A stretch of DNA of 64,000 nucleotides from Dictyostelium discoideum (GCA_000004695.1 CM000152.2:288001-352000), one strand, 5' to 3'. Counted from the stretch's first letter, positions 8,602 to 58,615 are shown. Made by a program: numbers and translations. The notes: generated from the letters alone by a model not told the origin.

Positions 8602-9542
8602 ATGGGTGCCCAAAAATTACCAATATTAGAATATCTTCAAGCAGAAAATGATTCACCATTACCATATGAAGGTGAAGATAGACCATTGGTAGTAGTTTTA
8701 GGTTGGATGGGATGTCGTCGTGAACATTTATTAAAATATGTTGACCAATGGAGAAAACGTGGTTTCAATACATTTTCATTTTGTTCAAAACCAATTCAAT
8801 TGTATTGTATCATTATTTTAAAATAATTTGTAAATATTAAATAAATACTAACCCTTCCCCCTTCCCCCTTCCCCCTTCCCCCTTCCCCCTTCCCCCCTTT
8901 TTTTTATTTTTTTTTTTTAAAATATTTAGATTGGTTCCAGGAGTAATTCAAAATAAAGGTGATGAAATGTTAGAACAAATTAAAAAATATTTAAAAGAGA
9001 ATAGAAATTGTAAAAGTGTAATATTTAATGCATTTTCAAATGGTGGTGGATTTTATTATGCACATATGATTCGTCAAATTCATGAAAGAGAGGATTGCAA
9101 GTGGATGGCTCCTTTGGTAAAGGGAACTGTGTTGGATTCGTTGCCTGCAATTAGACCATTATCCATCTATTCAGCATTCCGTTTAACTAGTCCAAATATG
9201 TTTGTAACTTTCTTATTAGCATTGGTAGTACCATTATTTGTAGTTTTATTTTGGAGTAAGATGTCATCGTATCAACAAATTTTAACCTCAAAAAAGAATC
9301 AATGGCAACATTTAATTTTCTATTCAAAAGCTGATACTATAGTTCATTCTGATGATATCGATAATTTAGTTGGTAAAATAAAGAATAATTTATCAGATGT
9401 CAATCATCTAGATTATAAATGTTTCGACGATTCACCACATGTTCTCCATATGAGATCACATCCAAAAATATATGAAGATAAATTAAATCATTTCGTTACT
9501 TCAATTAAAAATTCAAATTTGAAAAAATTACAAAATAAATAA
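8602..9542 (+). CDS. TMEM53/DUF829-family membrane protein, two exons of about 8602..8801 and 8930..9542.
   Basis: Exon 1 encodes MGAQKLPILEYLQAENDSPLPYEGEDRPLVVVLGWMGCRREHLLKYVDQWRKRGFNT.., which matches the PLV(I/V)LLGW.G....L.KY TMEM53 motif. A GTATTG donor lies at about 8802 and a TAG acceptor at about 8929. Exon 2 continues in frame to the TAA at 9542. Confidence 0.7.
8855..8907. repeat. (CCCCCTT)n heptanucleotide microsatellite, about six units, inside the TMEM53-like intron.
   Basis: A C5T2 repeat is read directly from the sequence. The complementary strand is (AAGGGGG)n. Confidence 0.8.
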
Positions 9543-43473: not shown

Positions 43474-43505
<32 letters not shown>

Positions 43506-44447: not shown

Positions 44448-46836
44448 CTCTCTCCTTATTATTAAATAATAATTATTATTAGCATTTGATTTAAATGGTA
44501 AAAAACCTACCAAAAGTAATGTTGTAAGATTATTATTAAATAGAACTAATTCTGGAAGCAATTTATTATCAAAAAGAAGAACTTCAGAGACAGGAGATGA
44601 TGATAGTAATTCTAGTGTTGGTTTATTGAATAACAGTACTGGTAGTATAGGTAAAATGAATACACCAGAATCATCACCCAAATCATCATATATTCTAAGT
44701 AGTAGTATTGGTAGTGGTGGTAGTGGTGGTGGAGGTGGTAGTAGTGGTAGTCTTCAAAATTTAGATAGTGCTAGTAATAATAGTAGTGGCCCAAGGAGTA
44801 GAAGTGGTAGTCTTGGTAAAAATAATAGTAGCCAACAAAATAATAATAATTTAATATTAGACCCAAATTTTAATAATATTGATAAATCATTATGGACTGT
44901 TAGATCATTAAAAGAACATTCAAATCTTGTTGATATTATGGAAAGAATTAAACCAGCAAGTAGAGCCATTTCATTTGGTCAAATTTATGCAAGTGAAGAA
45001 ACTCAATTTGAATTTGATCCAGTTATTGGTCGTGATAATATTTTACAATTAATTTTACAACATTTACAATTTGAAGGTTTAATGGACTCTAGAAAAATTT
45101 TAGAAGAGGAAGCTAAAATTCAATATCCAGAATATACATTCAATGAATCAAGATTAGTCACCTTATTACGTGCTGTCATAAAAGATTCTGATAAAGTTTT
45201 CGATCTAACTCTAAATGATAGAGATAAAGATTCTCAACAAAAATTAGAAGAACATTTAGCATTCCTTGGTTTATTCAAAGATGAATCTCAAACTAATATG
45301 GTTGAAGATGTAAATATCTATGATGAACCTGAAAATTCAAATATTATATATGTAGATGAAAAAGATAATGATAAACCTTCAAAAGATTCACCAACAACAG
45401 CAACAACAACAACGACAGCAACAACAATTGCACCAAGTACAAGTATTAATAATTTATCAAGTTTATCAGTTAGTATAAGTTCAAATAATATAAATAATAA
45501 TAATAATAATAATAATAATATAAATAATTTAAATAGTACACAATTAATTAGTAATACACAACAACAACAAGCAACACCAAATACACCACCACAAGGTTTA
45601 AAATCAACACAATCAATTACAGGATCAACTGGTACATTAGGACCACAAGTTAAAGCAGCATCATTAAATAAATTAGTAATTTTATTAACACCAGAGAATA
45701 ATCATGATTTAGAGTATACAAAGACATTTTTATTAATGTATCAATCATTTACAACACCAGAGATATTATTACAGAAATTGATTCAACGTTATCATGTACC
45801 ACAAAAGGCAGGTCAATCAGTTGCAGAATGGAGACAACGTTCAACTCATATTCAACTTCGTGTACTAAATGTATTGAAAACTTGGATCAAAGATTATTTC
45901 TCTGATTTCTCTGAAAAGTTAATACTTGCCATTAAATCATTATTGGAATCAATGAGACAAACTGGTAATATGTCTTATGCAAAGGTGATTTCCGATGCCT
46001 TGAATTCAGGTTTAAAGAAAAGTGGTCGTAATAACACGGTTTTCACAGTTTCAGCACCCGAGCCTAAAGTACCTAAAAACATTTGGTCTCACAATTTAGA
46101 CATTTTCTCTGTGGATGAAGAGGAGATCTCTAGACAATTGACCTTGATGGACTTTGAAATCTTTTCAAATATTAAATCAACTGAACTTTTAAATCAGTGT
46201 TGGAATAAACCAAAACTACGTCACCGTTCTCCAAATGTTTTAGAATTAATTGGTCGTTTCAATGAAATCTCTCAATGGACTGCCACTTCGATTCTCTCAT
46301 GGCCCAAGGTTAAAGACAGAGCTAGAATCATGGGTAAATTCATAAAGATCGCTGAATACTGTATGAAGCATTTAAATAATTTCAATACTTCAATGGCAAT
46401 TCTTTCCGGTTTAAACGCTTCCTCAGTGCACAGATTAAAATTCACAAAAGAGGAATTACCAAGACACACTCAACAAGTTTACACAGAGTTACAATTTCAT
46501 CTAAGTTCAGCCCAAGCTTACAAAGAGTATCGTGCTTTATTAGCCAAGGCTAATCCACCATGTTTACCTTATCTTGGTGTTTATTTAACAGATTTAACAT
46601 TCTTTGAAGAAGGTAATCCCGATTTCATTCAAGGTTTTATCAATTTCGGTAAAAGAAAGTTAATCTATGGTTCAATCTCAAATGTTCAAAGTTTTCAAAA
46701 TACAAAATATAATTTACAACCTGTTTATCAAATTGCAAAATTATTAAAAGGTTTTAAACTTTTAGAAGAAAATGAACTTTATACAAGATCAATGTCTTTT
46801 GAACCAAGAAATAAAGAAAGAAGTGAAATTTTATAA
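44007..46836 (+). CDS. Ras guanine-nucleotide exchange factor with a LisH motif, a RasGEF N-terminal (REM) region and a CDC25-homology RasGEF domain. About 820 aa, three exons of 44007..44024, about 44247..44349 and about 44483..46836.
   Basis: An 18-nt first exon (ATGTCAAATCCAGTCTGT, MSNPVC) is followed by a GTATGT donor. Exon 2 starts after a TATAG acceptor (ISNSTNGSSNS..SPISKAS). Exon 3 contains ORF 44626..46836. The LisH motif is ILQLILQHLQFEGLMDSRKILEEEA. The CDC25 domain runs from LTLMDFEIFSNIK to GNPDFI and includes the conserved ..N.....AI...L..S..RL..T...L...... block. Confidence 0.8.
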
Positions 46837-47396: not shown

Positions 47397-48191
47397 TTTT
47401 TTATTTTTTATTATTATCTGTTTAAAATTTTAATATATTTAAAATGTTTTTTTAAATTTTTTTTTTTCGTTCTTATACTTTTTTTTTTTTCCTTTTTTAT
47501 TAAATGAAAATTTAGTAAAAATTAAAATTAAAATTAAAATTTAATAAAAATCCTTTTTTTGGAAATTTCACCCACATTCTAATATTTTCATAAAAAATAT
47601 TTTCACAATTTAAAAGACACACAAAGAAAGAAACTTTTGGAAATTTGAAAAAAAAAAAAAAAAATAAAAAAAATAAAAAAATAAAAAAAAAATAAAAAAG
47701 TTAATTTTAATATTATAATAAACAATGATACCATATTATTGTAATAATTATAAAATTTGAAATAAATAATATTTTTTTTTAAAATAATATATTATTTTTT
47801 TTTTATTTTAATTTAATATTTTCAGTTTTCTATTTTTATTGTTATTATTATTATTTTTTTTTTTAAAGAAATTTAAAGTTACCAAAATTAGGGAATTTAA
47901 ATTAATCCTGATGAATTGTAAACATTACTTTGATATTAAAATTTTTTTATTATTAACAAAATTGATAAATGAGTGATGGATTATTTTTTATAAGGGAATA
48001 ATTTTTTCATCTTGAATATTAACTGAGAATCTTATTTCTAATTCACCTCTTTCATTCAAAAAATCTTGTAAAACTTTTCTTGATTCTGTAAAACTATTAC
48101 CCAACCCAAATTTCTCGATTCTTCGAAATCTATTAGAAGCAATATTAGTATTAAACATCTTTAAATAAATTTATAATAAAGAGAATATACG

Positions 48192-49549
48192 CTATTTACC
48201 TTGATGATATGGTCCAAATGATATCACAGTGGCAGTTGAATCATCTGGTGGAATTAAAGAAAATGAAAACATATATTTTAAGAGTATATCGGATCTTGTT
48301 TTTCTCATTAAATATATACCAAGCTTTCCTTTATTTCCGGTATTGCCTTTTGGATAAATCCTAATATTAAATTTGTGAGATCCCACTTTAAAAACATTTG
48401 ATTCTTTATATTTTTCATGGGTATATAATGCACTAACACTTCTATAGTCAGGAATAATCCATTTGTTACTGTATTCCATCTCTTTAAAACCATTCTGTTT
48501 CAAAACATTTATTTCCTTTTTCAATTGAGTATAATCACAAAGGAGGATGTTAAGTTTTTGATTAATTTCTTCCATTTTTTTTTCTTGATTTAAAAAACTT
48601 TGATTATCTTTTTTTATTATTTCATTTTGATTCATTAGTTTTGTGACTGAATGTTCTAAAGAGTGAATTTTCATTTTTGATCTAGGAAAAAGTTTTCCAC
48701 ATAAAAATTCTTGACAAATAATATTAATATCAGACAATCATCATTTATATGTTTAGTTTTTGTATCTCTTTTAATCATAATTTTACAATGAGAGCATTCT
48801 ATTAAATATTTTGTGCAATGTGTTTTATGATGATCAGATAATGACGATCTTTGAATATTACTATTACAATATACACATTTTGAATATACTTTTGAACATT
48901 CATTTTGATGTTTGTCTGAATCCTTACTAAAAAACTTAATTAAACATAAATCACATTGCAATATTCTTGATTCACAAACTTTATAATGATTCTCTAATTC
49001 ACTAAATTTCATTACACCATGATTACATAGATCTTGATGTAATGTTTGATTGCTATTATTAATAGCAGGTAAACCCAACATGTTGAGTCTAAATACATTT
49101 TCGTTTGAATTTGGACAAAAAACCAATCTGTCTTTTAACCAATTAGAATATTCATTTTCCAAAAATCTATTTCTTGATAATTCTGAAATAGAAGAAATTG
49201 GTGTTTTACAAGTCATACACTTTTTATTTGTACTTAAATATCTTTCCCAACAACTTCTACAAGCTAAATGACCCTTTTTCCAAAATTATAAATATTATAT
49301 GGTTAGAATAAATAATGTTAGATTATTAATAATATAATTTATATTTACTTCTTTGCATTGAAGAGCTTTTGGTTCACTTCCAATAAATAATTCTAAACTA
49401 CAAATAATACATTCATATTTTTCTTCATCTGAATCAAATAAAATATCTTTTATTTCATATTTAATTGGAATTGCTGTTTGTGTAATTCTTGTTGGAGATG
49501 TTGCGTTGTTTACATGATTTAAAATACCGAACATTTTTTTTAAAGACAT
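48192..49549 (-). pseudogene. Array copy A of the TRAF-like RING/MATH gene. The RING exon is intact (49295..49549), but the main exon is split into two frames (48671..49216 and 48192..48737). This is probably a frameshift pseudogene.
   Basis: Exon 1 encodes ..KYECIICSLELFIGSEPKALQCKE. Exon 2 translates colinearly with copy B up to ..TKHINDDC. A 1-nt length difference relative to copy B at about 48725 then shifts the frame. The TRAF zinc fingers, coiled coil and MATH domain continue in the other frame (MSDINIICQEFLCGK...WIIPDYRSV...IRIYPKGN..). Confidence 0.55.
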
Positions 49550-50476
49550 TAAAAGAACAAATATAATAAAAAAGAAAATTCTAAGACATTAAAAGAACAA
49601 AAATAAAAAAAAAAGAAAAAAAAGAAATATAATAGGAAATGGCAGTTTGTGTTTTTTAAAAAATTTTTTTTTTTAATTACGAAAATAAATTTGATATTTG
49701 ATTTATTTATTATTGATTATCTTGATCAAAATTAAATTAACAAATAATAAATCTTTAAAAATTTAATTGATTAGACCATGTAAAAAAATTAGTATAATAA
49801 AAAAAAAATTAAGATAAAATATTATATTTAATTTTTTATGTGAACATACCATTTTTTTTTTTTAATTTTTTTTATTATCTTTTGTAATATCTTTTAATTG
49901 TTTTTAAAAAATTTTTTTATTCTACTTGAAGTATACTTTTTTTAATTTTTTTATTCCACTTGAAGTATACTTTTTTTAATTTTTTTTTTTTTTTATGAAG
50001 TTTGATATAATATTATAATAAACAAAGATTATTGTAATATTATAAAATTTGAAATAAATAATTTTTTTTTTTTTAAATCAATATATTGTTTTTTATTTTA
50101 ATTTAATATATTTCATTTTATTTTTATTACTATTATTTTTTTCAATCAAATTTAAAGTTACCAAGATAGAGAGTTCGAATTAATCCTGATGAATTATAAA
50201 CATTAGTTTTATATTAAATTTTTTTTATTATTAACAAGACTAATATATGAGCGATCTATTAATTTTTATAAGGGAATAATTTTTTCATCTTGAATAGTAA
50301 TTGAGAAACTTATTTCTAATTCACCTTTTTCATTCAAAAAATCTTTTAAAACCTTTCTTGAATCTGTAAATACATTAGTACCACAACTCAAACTTCTAGA
50401 TTCTTCGAAATCTATTAGAAGCAATATTAGTACTTATTAACTTCTTTAAATAAATTTAAAATAAAGAGAATATAAA

Positions 50477-51827
50477 CTATTTACCTCTATGGATTGGTCC
50501 TAATGATACTTTTGTAGCAGTTGAATCTTCTGGTGGAAGTAAAGAAAATGAAAACATATATTTTAAGAGTATACCATATCTTGGTTTCCTTTCTAAAAAT
50601 ACACCAAACTTTCCTTGTTTTCCGGCTTGACCATTTGGATAAATCTTAATATAAAATGTGTGGGATCCCACTTGAAAATCATTTGAATTTTTACTCTTTT
50701 TATGAGTATATAAAGCATTAAAACTTCTATATTCAGGAATAATCCATTTGTTACTGTATACCATCTCTTTAAAACTGTTCTGTTTCAAAACAGCTATTTC
50801 ATTTTTCAATTGAATATAATTATTAAGGAGGTTGTTAAGTTTTAGTTTAATTTCTTCGATTTTTTTTTCTTGATCCAAATTTTGATTATCTTTTTTTATT
50901 ATTTCATTTTGATTCATTAGTTTTGTGACTGAATGTTCTAAAGAATGAATTTGCATTTTTGATCTAGTAAAACGTTTGCCACATAAATATTCCGAACAAG
51001 TAATCATAATTTCTTCACAATCATCATTTATATGTTTTGTTATTGTATCTCTTTTAATCATAATTTTACAATGAGGGCATTCTATTAAATATTTTGTGCA
51101 ATGTGTTTTATGATGATCAGATAATGATGATCTTAGAATATTACTATTACAAAATTCACATTTTGAATATACTTTTGAACATTCATTTTGATGTTTGTCT
51201 GAATCCTTACTACAAAATTTAATTAAACATAAATTACATTGTAATATTCTTGATTCACAAGCTTTATAATGATTCTGTAATTCACTAAATTTCATTGCAC
51301 CATGATTACATAGATCTTGATGTAATGTTTGATTGCTATTATTAATAGCAGGTAAACCCGACATATTGAGTCTAAATACATTTTCGTTTGAATTTGGACA
51401 AAAAACTAGTCTATCGTTTAACCAATTAGAATATTCTTTTTCCAAGTATCTATTTCTTGATAATTCTGAAATTGAAGAAATTGGTGTTTTACAAGTCATA
51501 CACTGTTTATTTGTGCTTAGATATCTTTCCCAACAACGTCTACAAGCTAAATGACCCTTTATTTAAATGATTTTAATTAAATTATATGGTTAGAATAAAT
51601 ATTGTGATATAATTGATAATTTAATTAATATTTACTTCTTTGCATTGAAGAGCTTTTGGTTCACTTTCAATAAATAATTCTAAAGTACAAATATCACATT
51701 CATACTTTTCTTCATCTGAATCAACTAATATATCTTTTATTTCATATTTAATTGGGATTACTTTTGGTGTAATTTTTGTTGGAGATGTTGGGTTGTTTAT
51801 GTTGTTAATTAGATTTATAAAATCAAG

Positions 51828-51830
<3 letters not shown>
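50477..51830 (-). CDS. Array copy B. This is the intact TRAF-type E3 ligase-like protein, with an N-terminal C3HC4 RING, TRAF-type zinc fingers, a coiled coil and a C-terminal MATH/TRAF-C domain. About 425 aa, two exons of 51830..about 51636 and about 51556..50477.
   Basis: The RING spans the intron (CDICTLEL..EPKALQC / GHLACRRCWERYLSTNKQCMTC). There are three TRAF-ZF units (C..C....H.....C patterns such as CESRILQCNLCLIKFCSKDSDKHQNEC). The MATH signature is WIIPEYRSF..FQVGSHTFYIKIYPNGQAGKQGKFGVFL. A GTAAAT donor and an AAAG acceptor give a 79-bp intron. Confidence 0.8.
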
Positions 51831-51860
<30 letters not shown>

Positions 51861-52299
51861 CTAATAATGAGTATGAACAAAAATTAAAAAATAAAAGAAA
51901 AAAAGAAGAATAATTGGAAATTATGGTGAGTGTTACTGTTTGGAGGATGTTAAAAAAAAAAAAAAAAAAAAAAAAATAAATCAAAAATTAATCGTAATTT
52001 ATTTTAAAAAAAAAAAAAAAAATTTTTTTTCAATTTTGATTTTTGATTTATTATCTAGATTTAAAGCACAATGAAGCAGTTAGGGAATTAATTTTTTTTT
52101 TTTTGGGATATTTTTTTCTTTTTTTGGTGTCACGAAATCAGGAAAATAAAAAAAAATTAAAAATTAAAAATATATATTAATTATTTTTTTTTTTTTTAAT
52201 TTTACATTTTTATATTTTATTTATTTTTATATTTTTATTGTTTTTTTCAATGAAATTTAAAATTTCCAAAAATAGAGCAATTGATAATTTTTTATAATG

Positions 52300-53780
52300 G
52301 AACAGTTTCTTCACCTTTAATATTAATTGTGAAATATAATTCTAGTTCACCCCTTTCATTCAAATAATTTTTTAAAACATTTGTTGAATCTGTAAATTCA
52401 CTAGTACCCCAAAAGAAATTTTTAGATTCATGAAAATCTAATAGAAGCAAAATTAGTATTTTTTTTTTTCATCTTTAAATAAATTAATAAAAATGAGAAT
52501 AAACAGTATTTACCTATATAGCATGGTTTCGATTTAATAATTTTTTTAAAATTTGAATCATTTGGTGGATTTTTAAAAAATAAAATATCATGTGTGCCAT
52601 ATATTGGCTCTCTAACTAATAATACAGCAAACTTTCCATGTTTTTTGGCCCTGCATTTGGATAAATCCTAAGATTAAATTTGTGAGAGCCCACTTTTAAA
52701 AACATTTGAATCTAAGTGCTTTTAATAATTCACTAACCTTTTAATAGTCATGAATAACCCATTTGTTTGTATGTCCTATTTCTTTTAAAACCATTATCTT
52801 TTGTATTAGTTAACCCATTTTGATTCATTAATTTGGCTACTGAATGTTCTAAAGAATGGATTTGTCTTTTTGTTCTCTTAAAACTTTTGCCACATAAATA
52901 TTCTGGACAAAAATCATTATTTCTTCACAATCATCATTTAAATGTTTTGTTTTTGTATCTCTTTCACTCACCATTTTACAATAAGTACATTCTATTGTAG
53001 ATCATCATTATCTGATCATCATAAAACTTATTGTAAAAAAAATTTTTTACAATAAGTTTTATGATGATCAGATAATGATGATCTTATGATATCAGTATTA
53101 CAAAATTCACATTTTAAAAATACTTTTGGACATTCATTTTGATGTTTTTCAGAGTCCATACCAAAAAACTTAACTAAACATAAATTACATTGTAATATTT
53201 CTAGATTCACAATTTTGAATATGTTTCTCTAATTCACTGAATTTCATTACTCCACGAATACACAAATCTTAATGTAATTTTTGATCAATGCTATTATTTT
53301 CATTATTAATAGCAGGAGAACCTAACATGTTGATTCTATATAAATTTTCAATGGAATATGGACAAACAACTAATCTATTTGATAGTCAATCAGAATATTC
53401 ATTTTCAAAAATTCTATTTCTTGATAATTCTGAAATTGGCATTTTACAAATCATACAATCTTTTTTTGTTCTTAAATGACTTTCCCAACAATTTGAACAA
53501 ACTAAATGACCCTTTTTAAAATATATATTTGGTTAGAATAAATGATGTGTTATATTAAATAAAAAAATTGTATATTTACTTCTTTGCATTGAAGAGCACT
53601 TGCATGATTTCCAATAGAATATTCTGAATAATAATTACATTCATATTTTTCTGCATCTGAATCAACTAAAATATCTTTTGTTTCATATTCAATTGAGACT
53701 GTTATTGGTGTAATTTTTGTTGAAGATGTTGTGTTGTTCAAATGATTAAAAATACCAAACATTTTGTTTTTTCCAACCAA
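52300..53780 (-). pseudogene. Array copy C. It is a decayed RING/TRAF/MATH pseudogene with multiple frameshifts and an internal 84-bp palindrome.
   Basis: Only short ORF remnants survive. The RING exon is 53550..53780 (..KYECNYYSEYSIGNHASALQCKE). A TRAF-ZF fragment is 53028..53210 (..ILQCNLCLVKFFGMDSEKHQNEC..DHHKTYCKKF). The MATH region at about 52300..52760 is recognisable only at the DNA level. Confidence 0.5.
53000..53083. repeat. Perfect inverted repeat (palindrome) with 41-nt arms and a 2-nt AA spacer. It is made of TRAF zinc-finger coding sequence inside decayed copy C.
   Basis: GATCATCATTATCTGATCATCATAAAACTTATTGTAAAAAA at 53000..53040 is the exact reverse complement of 53043..53083. 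Confidence 0.85.
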
Positions 53781-53829
53781 AATAAAAAAAAAATAAAAAT
53801 AAAAATAAAAAAGTTCTAGTTCGGAGGAG

Positions 53830-54200
53830 GAAAAAAAAAAAAAAAGAAATCAAAGGAACTTGTTTTTAGTGTGATGGTTTTGAGGATGTTAAAAAAAGAA
53901 ATAAAGTAACTGGTAGTGAGTATTATGGTTTTAAGGGTGTAAAAAATTAAAAAAATAGAAATAAAAGAAATGTTGGTGATTATATAGTTTTAAACTATAT
54001 GGTTTGTAGGATGTGAAAAAAAGAAATAAAAAAAAAGAAATCAAAGAACCGTTGGTGATTTTATAGTTTTATTGTTTTAAGGATTTTAAAAAAAGAAATA
54101 AAATATCTGGTGGTAAATATTATGGTTTTGAGGATGTAAAAAAAAAAAAAAAAAAAGAAATCGAAGGATTTTATAGTTTGCATGAAGTTAAAAAAAAAAA
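53830..54200. repeat. Minisatellite of about six tandem units of 55-65 bp, with consensus roughly AGAAATAAAGNAACTGGTGGTGANTATTATGGTTTTGAGGATGTAAAAAAA. It lies immediately 5' of array copy C. Single copies of the same unit lie 5' of copy B (about 51895..51950) and copy A (about 49625..49665).
   Basis: The repeated blocks all end in ..ATGGTTTT(G/A)AGG(A/G)TGT(T/A)AAAAAA. This is read directly from the sequence. Confidence 0.6.
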
Positions 54201-54269
54201 TTTAAAAAATAAATAAAATTTTTCTCAACTTAATTTTAATTATACAAAATATATTCAACTTATTTTTTA

Positions 54270-54760
54270 ACACTATTGATTAATGGTAAACCCATATTGA
54301 GTCCAAATGTATTTAATTTGGAATATGGACAAACAACTAATCTATTATTTAACCAATTAAAATATTCATTTTCTAAATATCTACTTCTTGATAACATTAA
54401 AATTGATGGAATTGGAGTTCTGCAAATCATACACTCTTTTCTTAAAACTAAACATTTTTCCCAACAACTTTTACAAGCAAAATGACCCTATTTTTTTTTA
54501 AATTATATAAATAAATAATGTAGTGAGTATAATTATTATATTTTAATTATTAGATATGTATGTATTTATTTATTTACTTCTTTGCATTGAAGAGCTTCTG
54601 GTTTTTTCTCATTAATTAACTCTGAATTACAAATATCGCATTCATATTTTATTTCACTTGAATCAACTAATATATCTTTTATTTCATATCTAATTTGGGC
54701 TGGTATTGTTTCAATTTTTGTTGGACCTCTTCTATCCATTAGAGATACGACCCTAATCAT
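54270..54760 (-). pseudogene. Array copy D. It is a truncated 5' fragment with the RING exon and the start of exon 2 only.
   Basis: ORF 54566..54760 encodes ..IKYECDICNSELINEKKPEALQCKE. The antisense ORF 54276..54485 covers the first half of a RING/ZF exon (GHFACKSCWEKCLVLRKECMICRTP..). The unit ends at about 54270 with no TRAF-ZF or MATH part. Confidence 0.45.
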
Positions 54761-54895
54761 TTTTTTTTAAATCCAAAATTGTGTAATTTAAAAATTTAAT
54801 GGCAACTATCAAAAAAAAAAAAAAAAAAAAAAATTAATTTATTTTCGTTCTTCAATATTTAAATTAAAATTGTGTTAAAAGTTAATATATGCTGA

Positions 54896-55670: not shown

Positions 55671-58615
55671 TTAATTTAAAATACCTCTACCAAAATATTC
55701 AGAAACAGTAGTGAAACCATCAGGAGAACTTCTTAATAATTTAAAGAATTGATCATGTTGATTGGCGGAATCAGCTTGTGATCTTTTAATCTCTTGAATT
55801 CTTTTATTAGCACCAGCACAAGAAGGACATTCTCTTTCATTCTCACCGAGACATCTTTGATGGAAAGAATGTTGACATAAAAAGTGAACACTTGGTAAAT
55901 CCAAAGCCAATAGACAAGCGATACATTTAGTTTGTTGGAAAATTTTAGAATTTGTACGAAGTTCGTTGATTTCATGTCTCATCTTTTCAGTCTCATCGGC
56001 GTATTGTCTGATTTGAGTGTAATCCTTATCGATTTGTTGAGTTTCTTGAGACAATCTTCTAGAGATATAATCTTTGATGACGGCCAAAGTGGTATTCTTA
56101 TTTTGTGATAGGATTTGTATTACCAAGAGTGGTGGAATGAGATTCTCCTTATCGATGTTGGTCAACACCTCGATGATCTCATCTTGACAATCCTGTTTAT
56201 TGGTTGAAAAGAATGACAATGCTCTCACCCAAAGGTTTGGATCTTTTACACCATATCTCTTGCAAGCTTTGATCAAGCCATCGTAATCATTATTCTCCAT
56301 ATGGTACTCGATGATCTCATTGAATAACTCTAACTTTTCATATAAATACAATACACCCTCCTTCCAATTATGAACTTGTACTAAAATCAATGCATGATCT
56401 TGATCAAATTTTGATTTTGGATTCGTTAAAAATTCATATGCTTTCGCTTTTCTCTTTATTCTCTCATCATCAGTTTGATTGACATCATCTCTCAAATATA
56501 ACTCTAACAATGTATTATAAATTAATGATGATTCATTATTACCTTGTTGTACCATATATTCTAAAAATTTAACTAACCAATCTGCTTGTGATACAAAAAT
56601 ATGAATAAATTCTTCTGGTGCTGATTTTTGTTTAAATCCAATATTATTATTATTATTATTATTATTATTTTGATTATTATTATTACTATTATTATTTTGA
56701 TTATTATTATTTGTTACATTTGTTACAGTTGTTGTTGTTGTTGTTTGATTACTAATTGTTAAACCATTTAAATTTAAAGCTGTTAAAGAATCAAAAGCTT
56801 GAACTGGTTGATAATTTGTACATAATTTCATTAAGACACCAGTAGTTTCTTCAGGAATTTCAGAGACTAATTGTTTACCATATTTTTTAAGATTTTTATC
56901 AGCTTCTTCCCAATCAAGTGTTTGAATGTAATCTAAAGCTTTTCTATATTCATTGAGATCCTCCAAGAGAATTTTAAGATACCAATCGTGACGACTATGT
57001 TTTGATGCTAAAAAGAGTGCACGATCGAAATAACCACCTTGACGACAAACTTTAATTGCTGTCTCGACATCGAATGTACCATTGTCTGTCATAATGAAAT
57101 GATCGAGTTTCTTTACATCCTTTAATTTGGTATAACAATTCAAGAGTAGTGTAGTGTGGTTGGCTGTGGCTAAATTCTTCTCATGCAATGCTTGAATGTA
57201 TGATGTAAGATTATGAATTCTTTGAGCGTCCAAGAACTTTCTAATGACATAAGATGGCTCCAACTGACCAATCGTGCAAAGGTATTGGGTGATGGCGCCG
57301 TCGTAGTCGCCCTTGGCATACAACCTGTCGCCATACTCCCTATAGACGTCTGCAATGGCACTATTGTCATAATGCTGTGACTTTGCTAAATCGATAGCCA
57401 CTTGATATGAATGCTTCTTAAACAAGGTTTCCAACTTGGTTTGTGTGTCTTTCTCCTCCAATTGAAACACCTTACCATCGGCACCAAATATGAAAATTGA
57501 GCCCCACTCACTGCAAATATGAGACACTGTATCGAACTTCTCTGTGAAACCAATATATTTATTCTTTAAATCATAGATATTCAATACATTGTTTTTCGTG
57601 TTTTGCACCATAACCGATGGCGACCCAATACTACCTGTCTGACTACCCAACCCACCTATGCTATTCTGTCCGCCTACCACAGCACCTGGGAACAAGGCAT
57701 TGGTGTTGTTAGTGTCATATCCAATCACTACCAAATAGGAACGGAACCACAGCACTTTGGTCTTCACACCTGTGAAACCAAAACACGGTCCTCTTCCATC
57801 CACATTATAGAAATAAATTGCATCTGATCTTGCTATAATTGGCGACCCATCGTCACTCATTAAAAACGAGCCGATGTCACCCCCCTCATCGTCTATTATC
57901 GTCTCTTGATCTTTATGTGCTGTATGATAGGTTATAACATGTGTTGTTGTCACTACAAACAACACTGCACCCGCACTCGCACTCTGTTGACTCTTTGTTG
58001 GGAAAAACCCTAACCCTGTAATTGGCGAATCGTTTGGTACTTTGATAATCTTTTGTTTAATAACTTTATCTCTAAATATATCTGCTCTAATTATAATGAT
58101 TTCACCATTTGCTAAACCAACGATAATCTGTGACAAATCTTCCAACAATGTGAAACATGTTACTGTAACTGATTTCTCTAATTTAATAGATCTAACACAA
58201 ATTGGTTGTTCATTCTTATCAGTTTTATCAAGATTCCAAATTTTTAAGATTGCTGCACCACCAATATCATCATGACCAACTGAAGAAAGGAAATTTCTCT
58301 CCTTTAATTGATAAATTAATGATACTGATTGTTGATATGCTTGAAATGATGATATTCCAAATTCTCTATCTACAAAATTAATAAAACCTTCTGCATCACC
58401 AATAATTAAACTACCACGACCACTAGTTGTACATGTAATTGATAATTTCTTTTTTTTTTTCAATAATAATAATAATAGTAAAAAATAAATTAGTATTAAA
58501 TTCTTATTAATATTATTTTTTTGTGAATACATACTTGTAACGAAGATCCATCTTCTTTTTCAACCTGTTTTACAGTCTCAATATCAAAGAATGTGAATCT
58601 CTTCCAATTATTCAT
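55671..58615 (-). CDS. vps11: Vacuolar protein sorting-associated protein 11 (VPS11/PEP5), a HOPS/CORVET class C core subunit. About 953 aa, two exons of about 58615..58535 and about 58448..55671.
   Basis: Exon 1 is MNNWKRFTFFDIETVKQVEKEDGSSLQ, with a GTATGT donor. Exon 2 begins KLSITCTTSGRGSLIIGDAEGFINF. These match the metazoan VPS11 N-terminus (RRFVFFDKE..SGRGSLVFGDMEG.IWF). A long block of near-identity to the VPS11 central region is present (YREYGDRLYAKGDYDGAITQYLCTIGQLEPSYVIRKFLDAQRIHNLTSYIQALHEKNLATANHTTLLLNCYTKLKD). The C-terminus is a RING-H2 (CIACLLALDLPSVHFLCQHSFHQRCL...CPSC). Confidence 0.9.

Follow-up and report, generated by a model that had tools for sequence, protein, structure and literature searches.

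A perfect 86-bp palindrome inside a decayed TRAF-like gene copy of Dictyostelium discoideum is real, and is probably a mutational scar without function, left by one short-range fold-back template switch (order 3-2-1-4) within that copy. The palindrome lies in the window analyzed here, by which we mean the whole 64,000-nucleotide stretch of DNA, with a GC content of 22-23%. Its host belongs to an array of four tandem minus-strand gene copies of the TRAF-type zinc finger plus MATH type, flanked by a RasGEF gene (44626-46836, plus strand) and VPS11 (55671-58532, minus strand). The architecture of the array genes is RING, TRAF zinc fingers and MATH, and the four copies are as follows.

47988-49549, minus strand: copy A, DDB_G0278131 (AX4), with a -1 frameshift near 48731-48734 that cuts the product to 262 aa.
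50266-51830, minus strand: copy B, the intact paralogue of 470 aa, three exons, zf-TRAF and MATH, 100% identical to ACTFIT_009931.
52292-53780, minus strand: copy C, a TRAF-like pseudogene, DDB_G0278135 / ACTFIT_009933, recognized by tblastn frame changes, alignment to copy B, translations and gene models.
54260-54760, minus strand: copy D, the fourth family copy, a 5' fragment with exon 1 and the start of exon 2.

Copy B, with exons at 51830 to ~51636, 51559-50486 and 50412-50269, serves as the reference for the state before the insertion. Its zinc-finger region matches Pfam zf-TRAF at 38.4 bits against a cut-off of 27, which bears out the TRAF zinc-finger coding origin that the first-pass annotation had assigned to the palindrome; MATH_2 scores 24.5 bits, under its cut-off of 32. 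Copy C can be aligned to exons 1-3 of copy B, with breaks in frame and an amino-acid identity of 41-72% in the individual segments; it is the decayed tandem copy in which the palindrome had been placed. Exact-ORF look-ups returned no exact record for the ORF ending in the palindrome, the copy B exon-2 ORF or the RasGEF ORF.

The palindrome had been described as an 84-bp perfect inverted repeat at 53000-53083 with 41-nt arms. Perfection is upheld by the sequence and by two independent scans, but each end lies 1 nt further out, giving arms of 42 nt (52999-53040 and 53043-53084) around an AA spacer. The parts of the palindrome and the insertion that made it are listed below.

52999-53040, minus strand: inverted arm, the new sequence from the event, complementary to the original arm at 42/42 positions and absent from 10/10 non-redundant paralogous or orthologous family copies.
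53041-53042, no strand: spacer, AA on the plus strand, the symmetry centre within an A8/T6 run.
53043-53084, minus strand: original arm, reading AGATCATCATTATCTGATCATCATAAAACTTATTGTAAAAAA on the minus strand and coding for RSSLSDHHKTYCKK of the copy C TRAF-type zinc finger, colinear with all family copies.
52997-53037, minus strand: net 41-nt insertion, sense strand TTTACAATAAGTTTTATGATGATCAGATAATGATGATCTAC, its placement ambiguous by a few nt in the T-run.
53028-53030, minus strand: TAA stop made by the insertion (…KKFFLQ*), ORF 53028-53210.

A structure of this kind is not expected by chance. In a 64-kb window of 23% GC the analytic expectation for a perfect hairpin of at least 42 nt with a spacer of 0-10 nt is 1.7e-15, and the longest arms in 20 simulated second-order Markov windows measure 11-15 nt; chance origin is excluded. 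Folded in silico, the single strand forms one unbroken, strong hairpin, at -41.3 kcal/mol as ssDNA (z = -14, equalled by none of 200 shuffles) and at -58.5 kcal/mol as RNA (z = -13), in agreement with the claim that the sequence can extrude as a hairpin. Longer, perfect palindromes that lack a spacer form hairpins or cruciforms, and break, more readily than others (PMC7999016). At 86 bp the length is modest, and the palindrome is evidently stable enough to match exactly in two assemblies.

The second of these assemblies bears on whether the palindrome could be an artefact of assembly, cloning or sequencing, for example a read that is chimeric or folded back on itself; strand switching in library preparation can indeed generate palindromes. 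The same 86 bp are present, base for base, at 8747-8832 of the L001 locus (GCA_054883475.1, CM142509.1). Across 17 kb, 3 substitutions and 11 indels separate this locus from the window, and all but one of the indels (10) are differences in the length of single-base runs. These run-length differences indicate that the assembly was separately produced, from the same or a very closely related strain, and does not derive from the window sequence; the differences have the pattern expected of a de novo assembly from long reads. A bioRxiv paper describes Nanopore/Flye de novo assemblies of nine strains, including two of a cryptic species, and its fit with the loci L001-L006 is a lead only. In addition, the flanks of the palindrome follow the gene family in exact colinearity, and the inserted segment measures 41 nt with clean limits. 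We regard an assembly chimera as unlikely, and an artefact of any of these kinds as very improbable; the worry about a chimera raised in the first-pass annotation is largely removed. The run-length sites lie at 43505, 44110, 44195, 44447, 47021, 54156, 54926, 55015, 55491 and 59078, and also at 53192-53208, with the A/T runs longer in the window than in GCA_054883475.1. Within copy C the difference is an extra A in GAATCTAG[A]AATATT, found in the window only; such differences are probably homopolymer errors in one of the two records.

What the event did to copy C can be read by comparison with copies A and B (MAFFT alignments) and, across five assemblies, with 10 non-redundant copies of the family. 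The right arm encodes RSSLSDHHKTYCKK in line with the family and is the normal minus-strand coding sequence that it had been taken for; the left arm is the same sequence inverted. The further claim, that this arm took the place of the 5' part of exon 2, does not hold. The insertion falls midway in exon 2, near residue 224 in the copy B protein of 470 aa, coding homology continues immediately beyond it, and the pre-event state suggested by copies A and B lacks the 41 nt. All uninterrupted copies read AAA TA(T/C) TTA ATA GAA TG at the site, and the sequence on either side aligns colinearly with copies A and B and with the 10 non-redundant family copies. Directly past the left arm the family sequence resumes as …AATAGAATGTACTTATTGTAAAATG…, that is IECTYCKM…. 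When the 41 nt are removed in silico the frame is restored (…KTYCKKFLIECTYCKMVSERDTKTKHLNDDCEEIMI), and copy C reads …SDHHKTYCKKF-LIECTYCKMVSERDTKTKHLNDDCEEIMI where copy B reads …SDHHKTHCTKY-LIECPHCKIMIKRDTITKHINDDCEEIMI. Loss of flanking sequence is small, at most ~5 nt, and replacement is limited to a few bases of the T-run.

These junctions fit the fold-back repair or template-switch origin that had been suggested, and may reflect a single switch. On this model the growing strand would leave its template at a short A6/T-run (…TTGTAAAAAA-T(A/T)TTT-AATAG…) during synthesis through copy C, and its terminal T's would pair with the A-run on its own or the sister strand. Some 39-41 nt would then be copied backwards, as the reverse complement of …AGATCATC…TTGTAAAAAA, before the strand returned to the original template at (AC)AATAGAATGT. 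One 3-2-1-4 step would thus yield a perfect inverted repeat, a net gain of 41 nt, a frameshift and a TAA four codons on. The sense strand observed is …CTTATTGT A6 T8 ACAATAAG…GATGATCT AC AATAGAATGT…, and its ancestor would have read …CTTATTGT A6 T(A/T)TTT AATAGAATGT…. We infer both the order of these events and that the error was replicative, not repair-associated.

Several features of the site agree with this scheme. The inverted arm is an exact reverse complement of nearby sequence at the same locus (42/42), and the flanks are colinear with an ancestor reconstructed from paralogues. It carries bases specific to copy C (…ACTTATTGTAAAAAA) where copies A and B have …ACACATTGCACAAAA, and therefore copy C itself was the template. 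The A-run/T-run at the symmetry centre is the sole self-complementary stretch able to prime a fold-back; that the proximal microhomology consists of an A/T run only counts against the 3-2-1-4 model. In published work, switches of the 3-2-1-4 order give rise to inverted repeats and occur frequently in the human-chimp set of template-switch events (PMC5453318), and template switches, whether intra- or inter-strand, can make complete perfect hairpins in one step (PMC10710096).

We tested the four-point template-switch model by brute force on candidate ancestors. Family-like ancestors, …T(A/T)TTTAATAG…, have no exact single-switch solution; 39 of the 41 nt are explained, with the distal AC left over. 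The ancestor …A6 TTT ACA ATA GAA…, which is in frame and two substitutions away from the family consensus, gives exact single-switch solutions in the order 3-2-1-4, and would carry a quasipalindrome with 9-nt arms, TATTGTAAA-AAA-TTTACAATA. The ancestor may therefore have been either …TTTTTAATAG…, with AC as filler or the product of a second switch, or …TTTACAATAG…, with one exact switch. The junction string TACAATA can itself be read as the reverse complement of a stretch of the original arm, TATTGTA, and its last four bases coincide with the AATA at the resume site; a second short switch would also account for the AC. The ancestor has to be reconstructed from paralogues ~24% diverged because no orthologous empty site was found: BLAST against the L002, L003, L004 and L006 loci returned neither a copy C orthologue nor an empty site (69-78% identity, with the best hits of 76-78% at paralogue level). 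A search of a 5.8-billion-protein collection with a copy C peptide reconstructed without the interruption retrieved only two gene models of the same lineage, and no Logan ORFs.

Copy C also contains a 13-nt direct repeat, ACTTATTGTAAAA, at about 52975-52987 and 53046-53058 on the minus strand, at two successive zinc-finger Cys codons. One copy of ACTTATTGTAAAA lies within the original arm near the palindrome centre. In the inferred ancestor the other is found 17 nt past the insertion site, on its downstream side, and the inverted arm can pair with this copy too.

A known system close to this scheme is the short-range template switch, as in the quasipalindrome model of Ripley and the four-point model of Löytynoja and Goldman (2017) with its 3-2-1-4 and 1-4-3-2 orders. 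Shared with it are the copying of a reverse complement beside the switch point, flanks that remain unchanged, and a perfect inverted repeat or hairpin arising from one event. The case described here differs in being a pure insertion with a tract of 39-42 nt, in a coding-derived pseudogene of an amoebozoan. There is only a trivial prior quasipalindrome (the A6/T-run), unless the ancestor read TTTACAATA; two junction bases are unexplained with a family-like ancestor, and the ancestral state comes from paralogues only.

The same product could arise by double-strand-break repair, if end joining of the alternative or polymerase-theta type left a templated insertion in inverted orientation. A break in or beside the A6/T-run would be resected, and the 3' tail would snap back and be extended in one or two abortive rounds of synthesis (a long tract, then the short (T)ACAATA) before annealing through the AATA microhomology. 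The junction lends itself to this account, since TACAATA has its reverse complement TATTGTA in the original arm and an AATA end matching the resume site AATAGAATGT, and a second short templated round would explain the AC. Theta-mediated end joining (TMEJ) is also reported to make hairpin-primed inverted-repeat insertions in several rounds, with enrichment in AT-rich flanks (PMC7165422). The inverted copy of the immediate flank, the AT-rich context and the possible second short round that makes microhomology for the final joint are all common to polymerase-theta end joining with snap-back (PMC7165422) and the copy C event. However, the insertions reported for TMEJ span 3-30 bp and their primary tracts seldom exceed 10 bp (PMC7165422), whereas the 41 nt here include one unbroken tract of ~39 nt, several-fold longer, and flanking loss is at most ~5 nt, essentially no deletion. 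We rank a replicative switch above break repair because the continuous tract of ~40 nt exceeds those of polymerase theta (PMC7165422), and hold the repair route to be possible but distinctly less likely, replication and break repair being indistinguishable from sequence alone. Our literature search found nothing specific on a Dictyostelium polymerase theta.

The presence of inverted repeats is all that would favour a mobile element of the foldback type, or else recombination or gene conversion involving a paralogue in inverted orientation, and we give such an origin almost no credence. One arm is host coding sequence in register with the paralogues, and the other matches it at 42/42 positions including the copy-specific bases; neither the rest of the window nor ~100 kb of related loci contain the arm again. 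A target-site duplication is missing from the ends (…TATTGT|AGATC…GATCT|TATGAT…), and the array holds its family copies in a single orientation, which argues against an inverted paralogue. Foreign arms, multiple copies and a target-site duplication, the marks of a foldback transposon or MITE, are all lacking, and this candidate was rejected.

The palindrome is not the only damage in copy C. Exon 1 has lost the CxxC of the RING and carries a 3-nt deletion. Upstream of the palindrome there are two nonsense codons, TGG>TGA at 53386-53388 and CAA>TAA at 53269-53271, both present in both assemblies. The insertion itself adds a frameshift and the TAA at 53028-53030. Downstream follow a -1 frameshift near 52911 and a deletion of ~104 nt near 52789, and the MATH region holds further indels and stops. 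The extra A within 53192-53208, a +1 frameshift, is in the window only and missing in GCA_054883475.1. The first-pass annotation had proposed that the palindrome disabled this copy; because of the two upstream nonsense codons, and with more lesions downstream, we reject this as unproven. To judge from the sequence, the palindrome is one of at least six lesions, and nothing marks it as the first. The arms show 0 differences in 42 nt, which from these counts places their divergence below ~7% at 95%, and copy C is ~24% diverged from every other copy. These values argue that the event is much younger than the origin of copy C, unless the arms were homogenized or re-switched.

Gene models on copy C splice across the palindrome and use the GT of TTGTAAAAAA as donor. 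ACTFIT_009933, at 8070-9539 of L001, reads …SDHHKTY|YTKTKHLNDD…, and DDB_G0278135 of AX4 reads …SDHHKTY|YFHESKNFF… and then jumps to the last exon. Both models look like annotation artefacts on a pseudogene.

The distribution of the palindrome was examined in other strains, namely the L002 and L006 loci and the "cf. discoideum" loci L003 and L004 (~86 kb). The palindrome is absent from all four loci, which hold no perfect hairpin of at least 20 nt in ~86 kb. The two palindrome-bearing assemblies represent the same or a near-identical lineage, and do not by themselves show the age and spread of the allele. Strains differ in how many copies the array as a whole (47900-54800 in the window) holds and in what it contains. 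No counterpart of copy C occurs in L002, L003, L004 or L006. L002 has three full-length genes; its counterpart of copy A is full length (469 aa), and at the position of copy D it has a full-length gene of 458 aa, to whose 5' end copy D corresponds. The -1 frameshift of copy A falls after …HINDDC, and in L001 the MATH part is annotated as a gene of its own. Between assemblies (window versus L002, L003, L004 and L006) the single-copy genes on the flanks share only ~88-94% identity. This variation in the array fits birth-and-death evolution.

A functional reading has also to be weighed, in which the palindrome would make copy C a newborn hairpin-RNA locus whose transcript folds and is diced into ~21-nt products antisense to the zinc-finger region of the intact paralogues. 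The stem is a perfect 42 bp and as stable as RNA as noted above, and of the 22 21-mers in the inverted arm, 9 would pair perfectly with intact copy B and 3 with copy A. New miRNA hairpins are documented to arise by template switching (PMC10710096), and Dictyostelium has Dicer-dependent small RNAs, some of them antisense to mRNAs (PMC2175303). However, complementarity to the paralogues, the sole footing of this reading, follows automatically from paralogy; the allele was seen in one lineage only, and a perfect stem with a loop of 2-4 nt is unlike typical miRNA precursors. We consider such a locus improbable, and the palindrome most likely has no function. With the new miRNA or hairpin genes that come from inverted duplication or template switching (Mönttinen et al. 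2023) the palindrome shares a perfect hairpin complementary to its family, likewise within a unit annotated publicly as a gene. It differs from new miRNA genes in its perfect stem, its minimal loop and its lack of membership in an Rfam family. The best Rfam match, MIR8675, reaches 45 bits where the gathering score is 90.8, with similar generic matches on both strands; these miRNA-hairpin matches are sub-threshold and generic and were dismissed. The arm sequence was not found in the searchable literature. If the hairpin-RNA reading were true, one template-switch error in a dead gene copy of an amoebozoan would have produced a trans-acting regulator of its own family.

At face value the palindrome is an ordinary mutational scar of a known type. 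Its value lies in being a clean one-step template-switch or fold-back insertion of textbook quality, with an unusually long 42-nt arm, in a very AT-rich genome. We found no catalogue of such events in Dictyostelium, and literature on Dictyostelium palindromes and cruciforms gave nothing specific. A perfect palindrome has the practical consequence that short-read assemblies break and read mapping is confused at the locus.

The window contains a second, longer perfect palindrome at 702-846. Its core, 712-770 and 780-838, consists of 59-nt arms around the 9-nt spacer TAAAAATAG, and it reaches TTGTAGT…ACTACAA if a run difference of A17 versus T14 is allowed. The sequence is AT-rich and not a simple repeat. 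A Tgr-like (Ig_TgrO1) gene, minus-strand ORF 911-1477, has its stop 65 nt away, with the palindrome on the 3' side. At this palindrome no alignment with the D. cf. discoideum locus L010 could be made. Two perfect palindromes in 64 kb suggest that the new long-read assemblies would allow a genome-wide, strain-polarized survey of template switches in Dictyostelium. Arm 1 of the 702-846 palindrome is covered by short-read Logan contigs of other runs (L007-L009), with 99.3-99.4% identity: L007 continues through the loop and 6 nt of arm 2, L009 stops at the end of arm 1, and L008 stops within arm 1. On this coverage the second palindrome is real and is shared by another strain.
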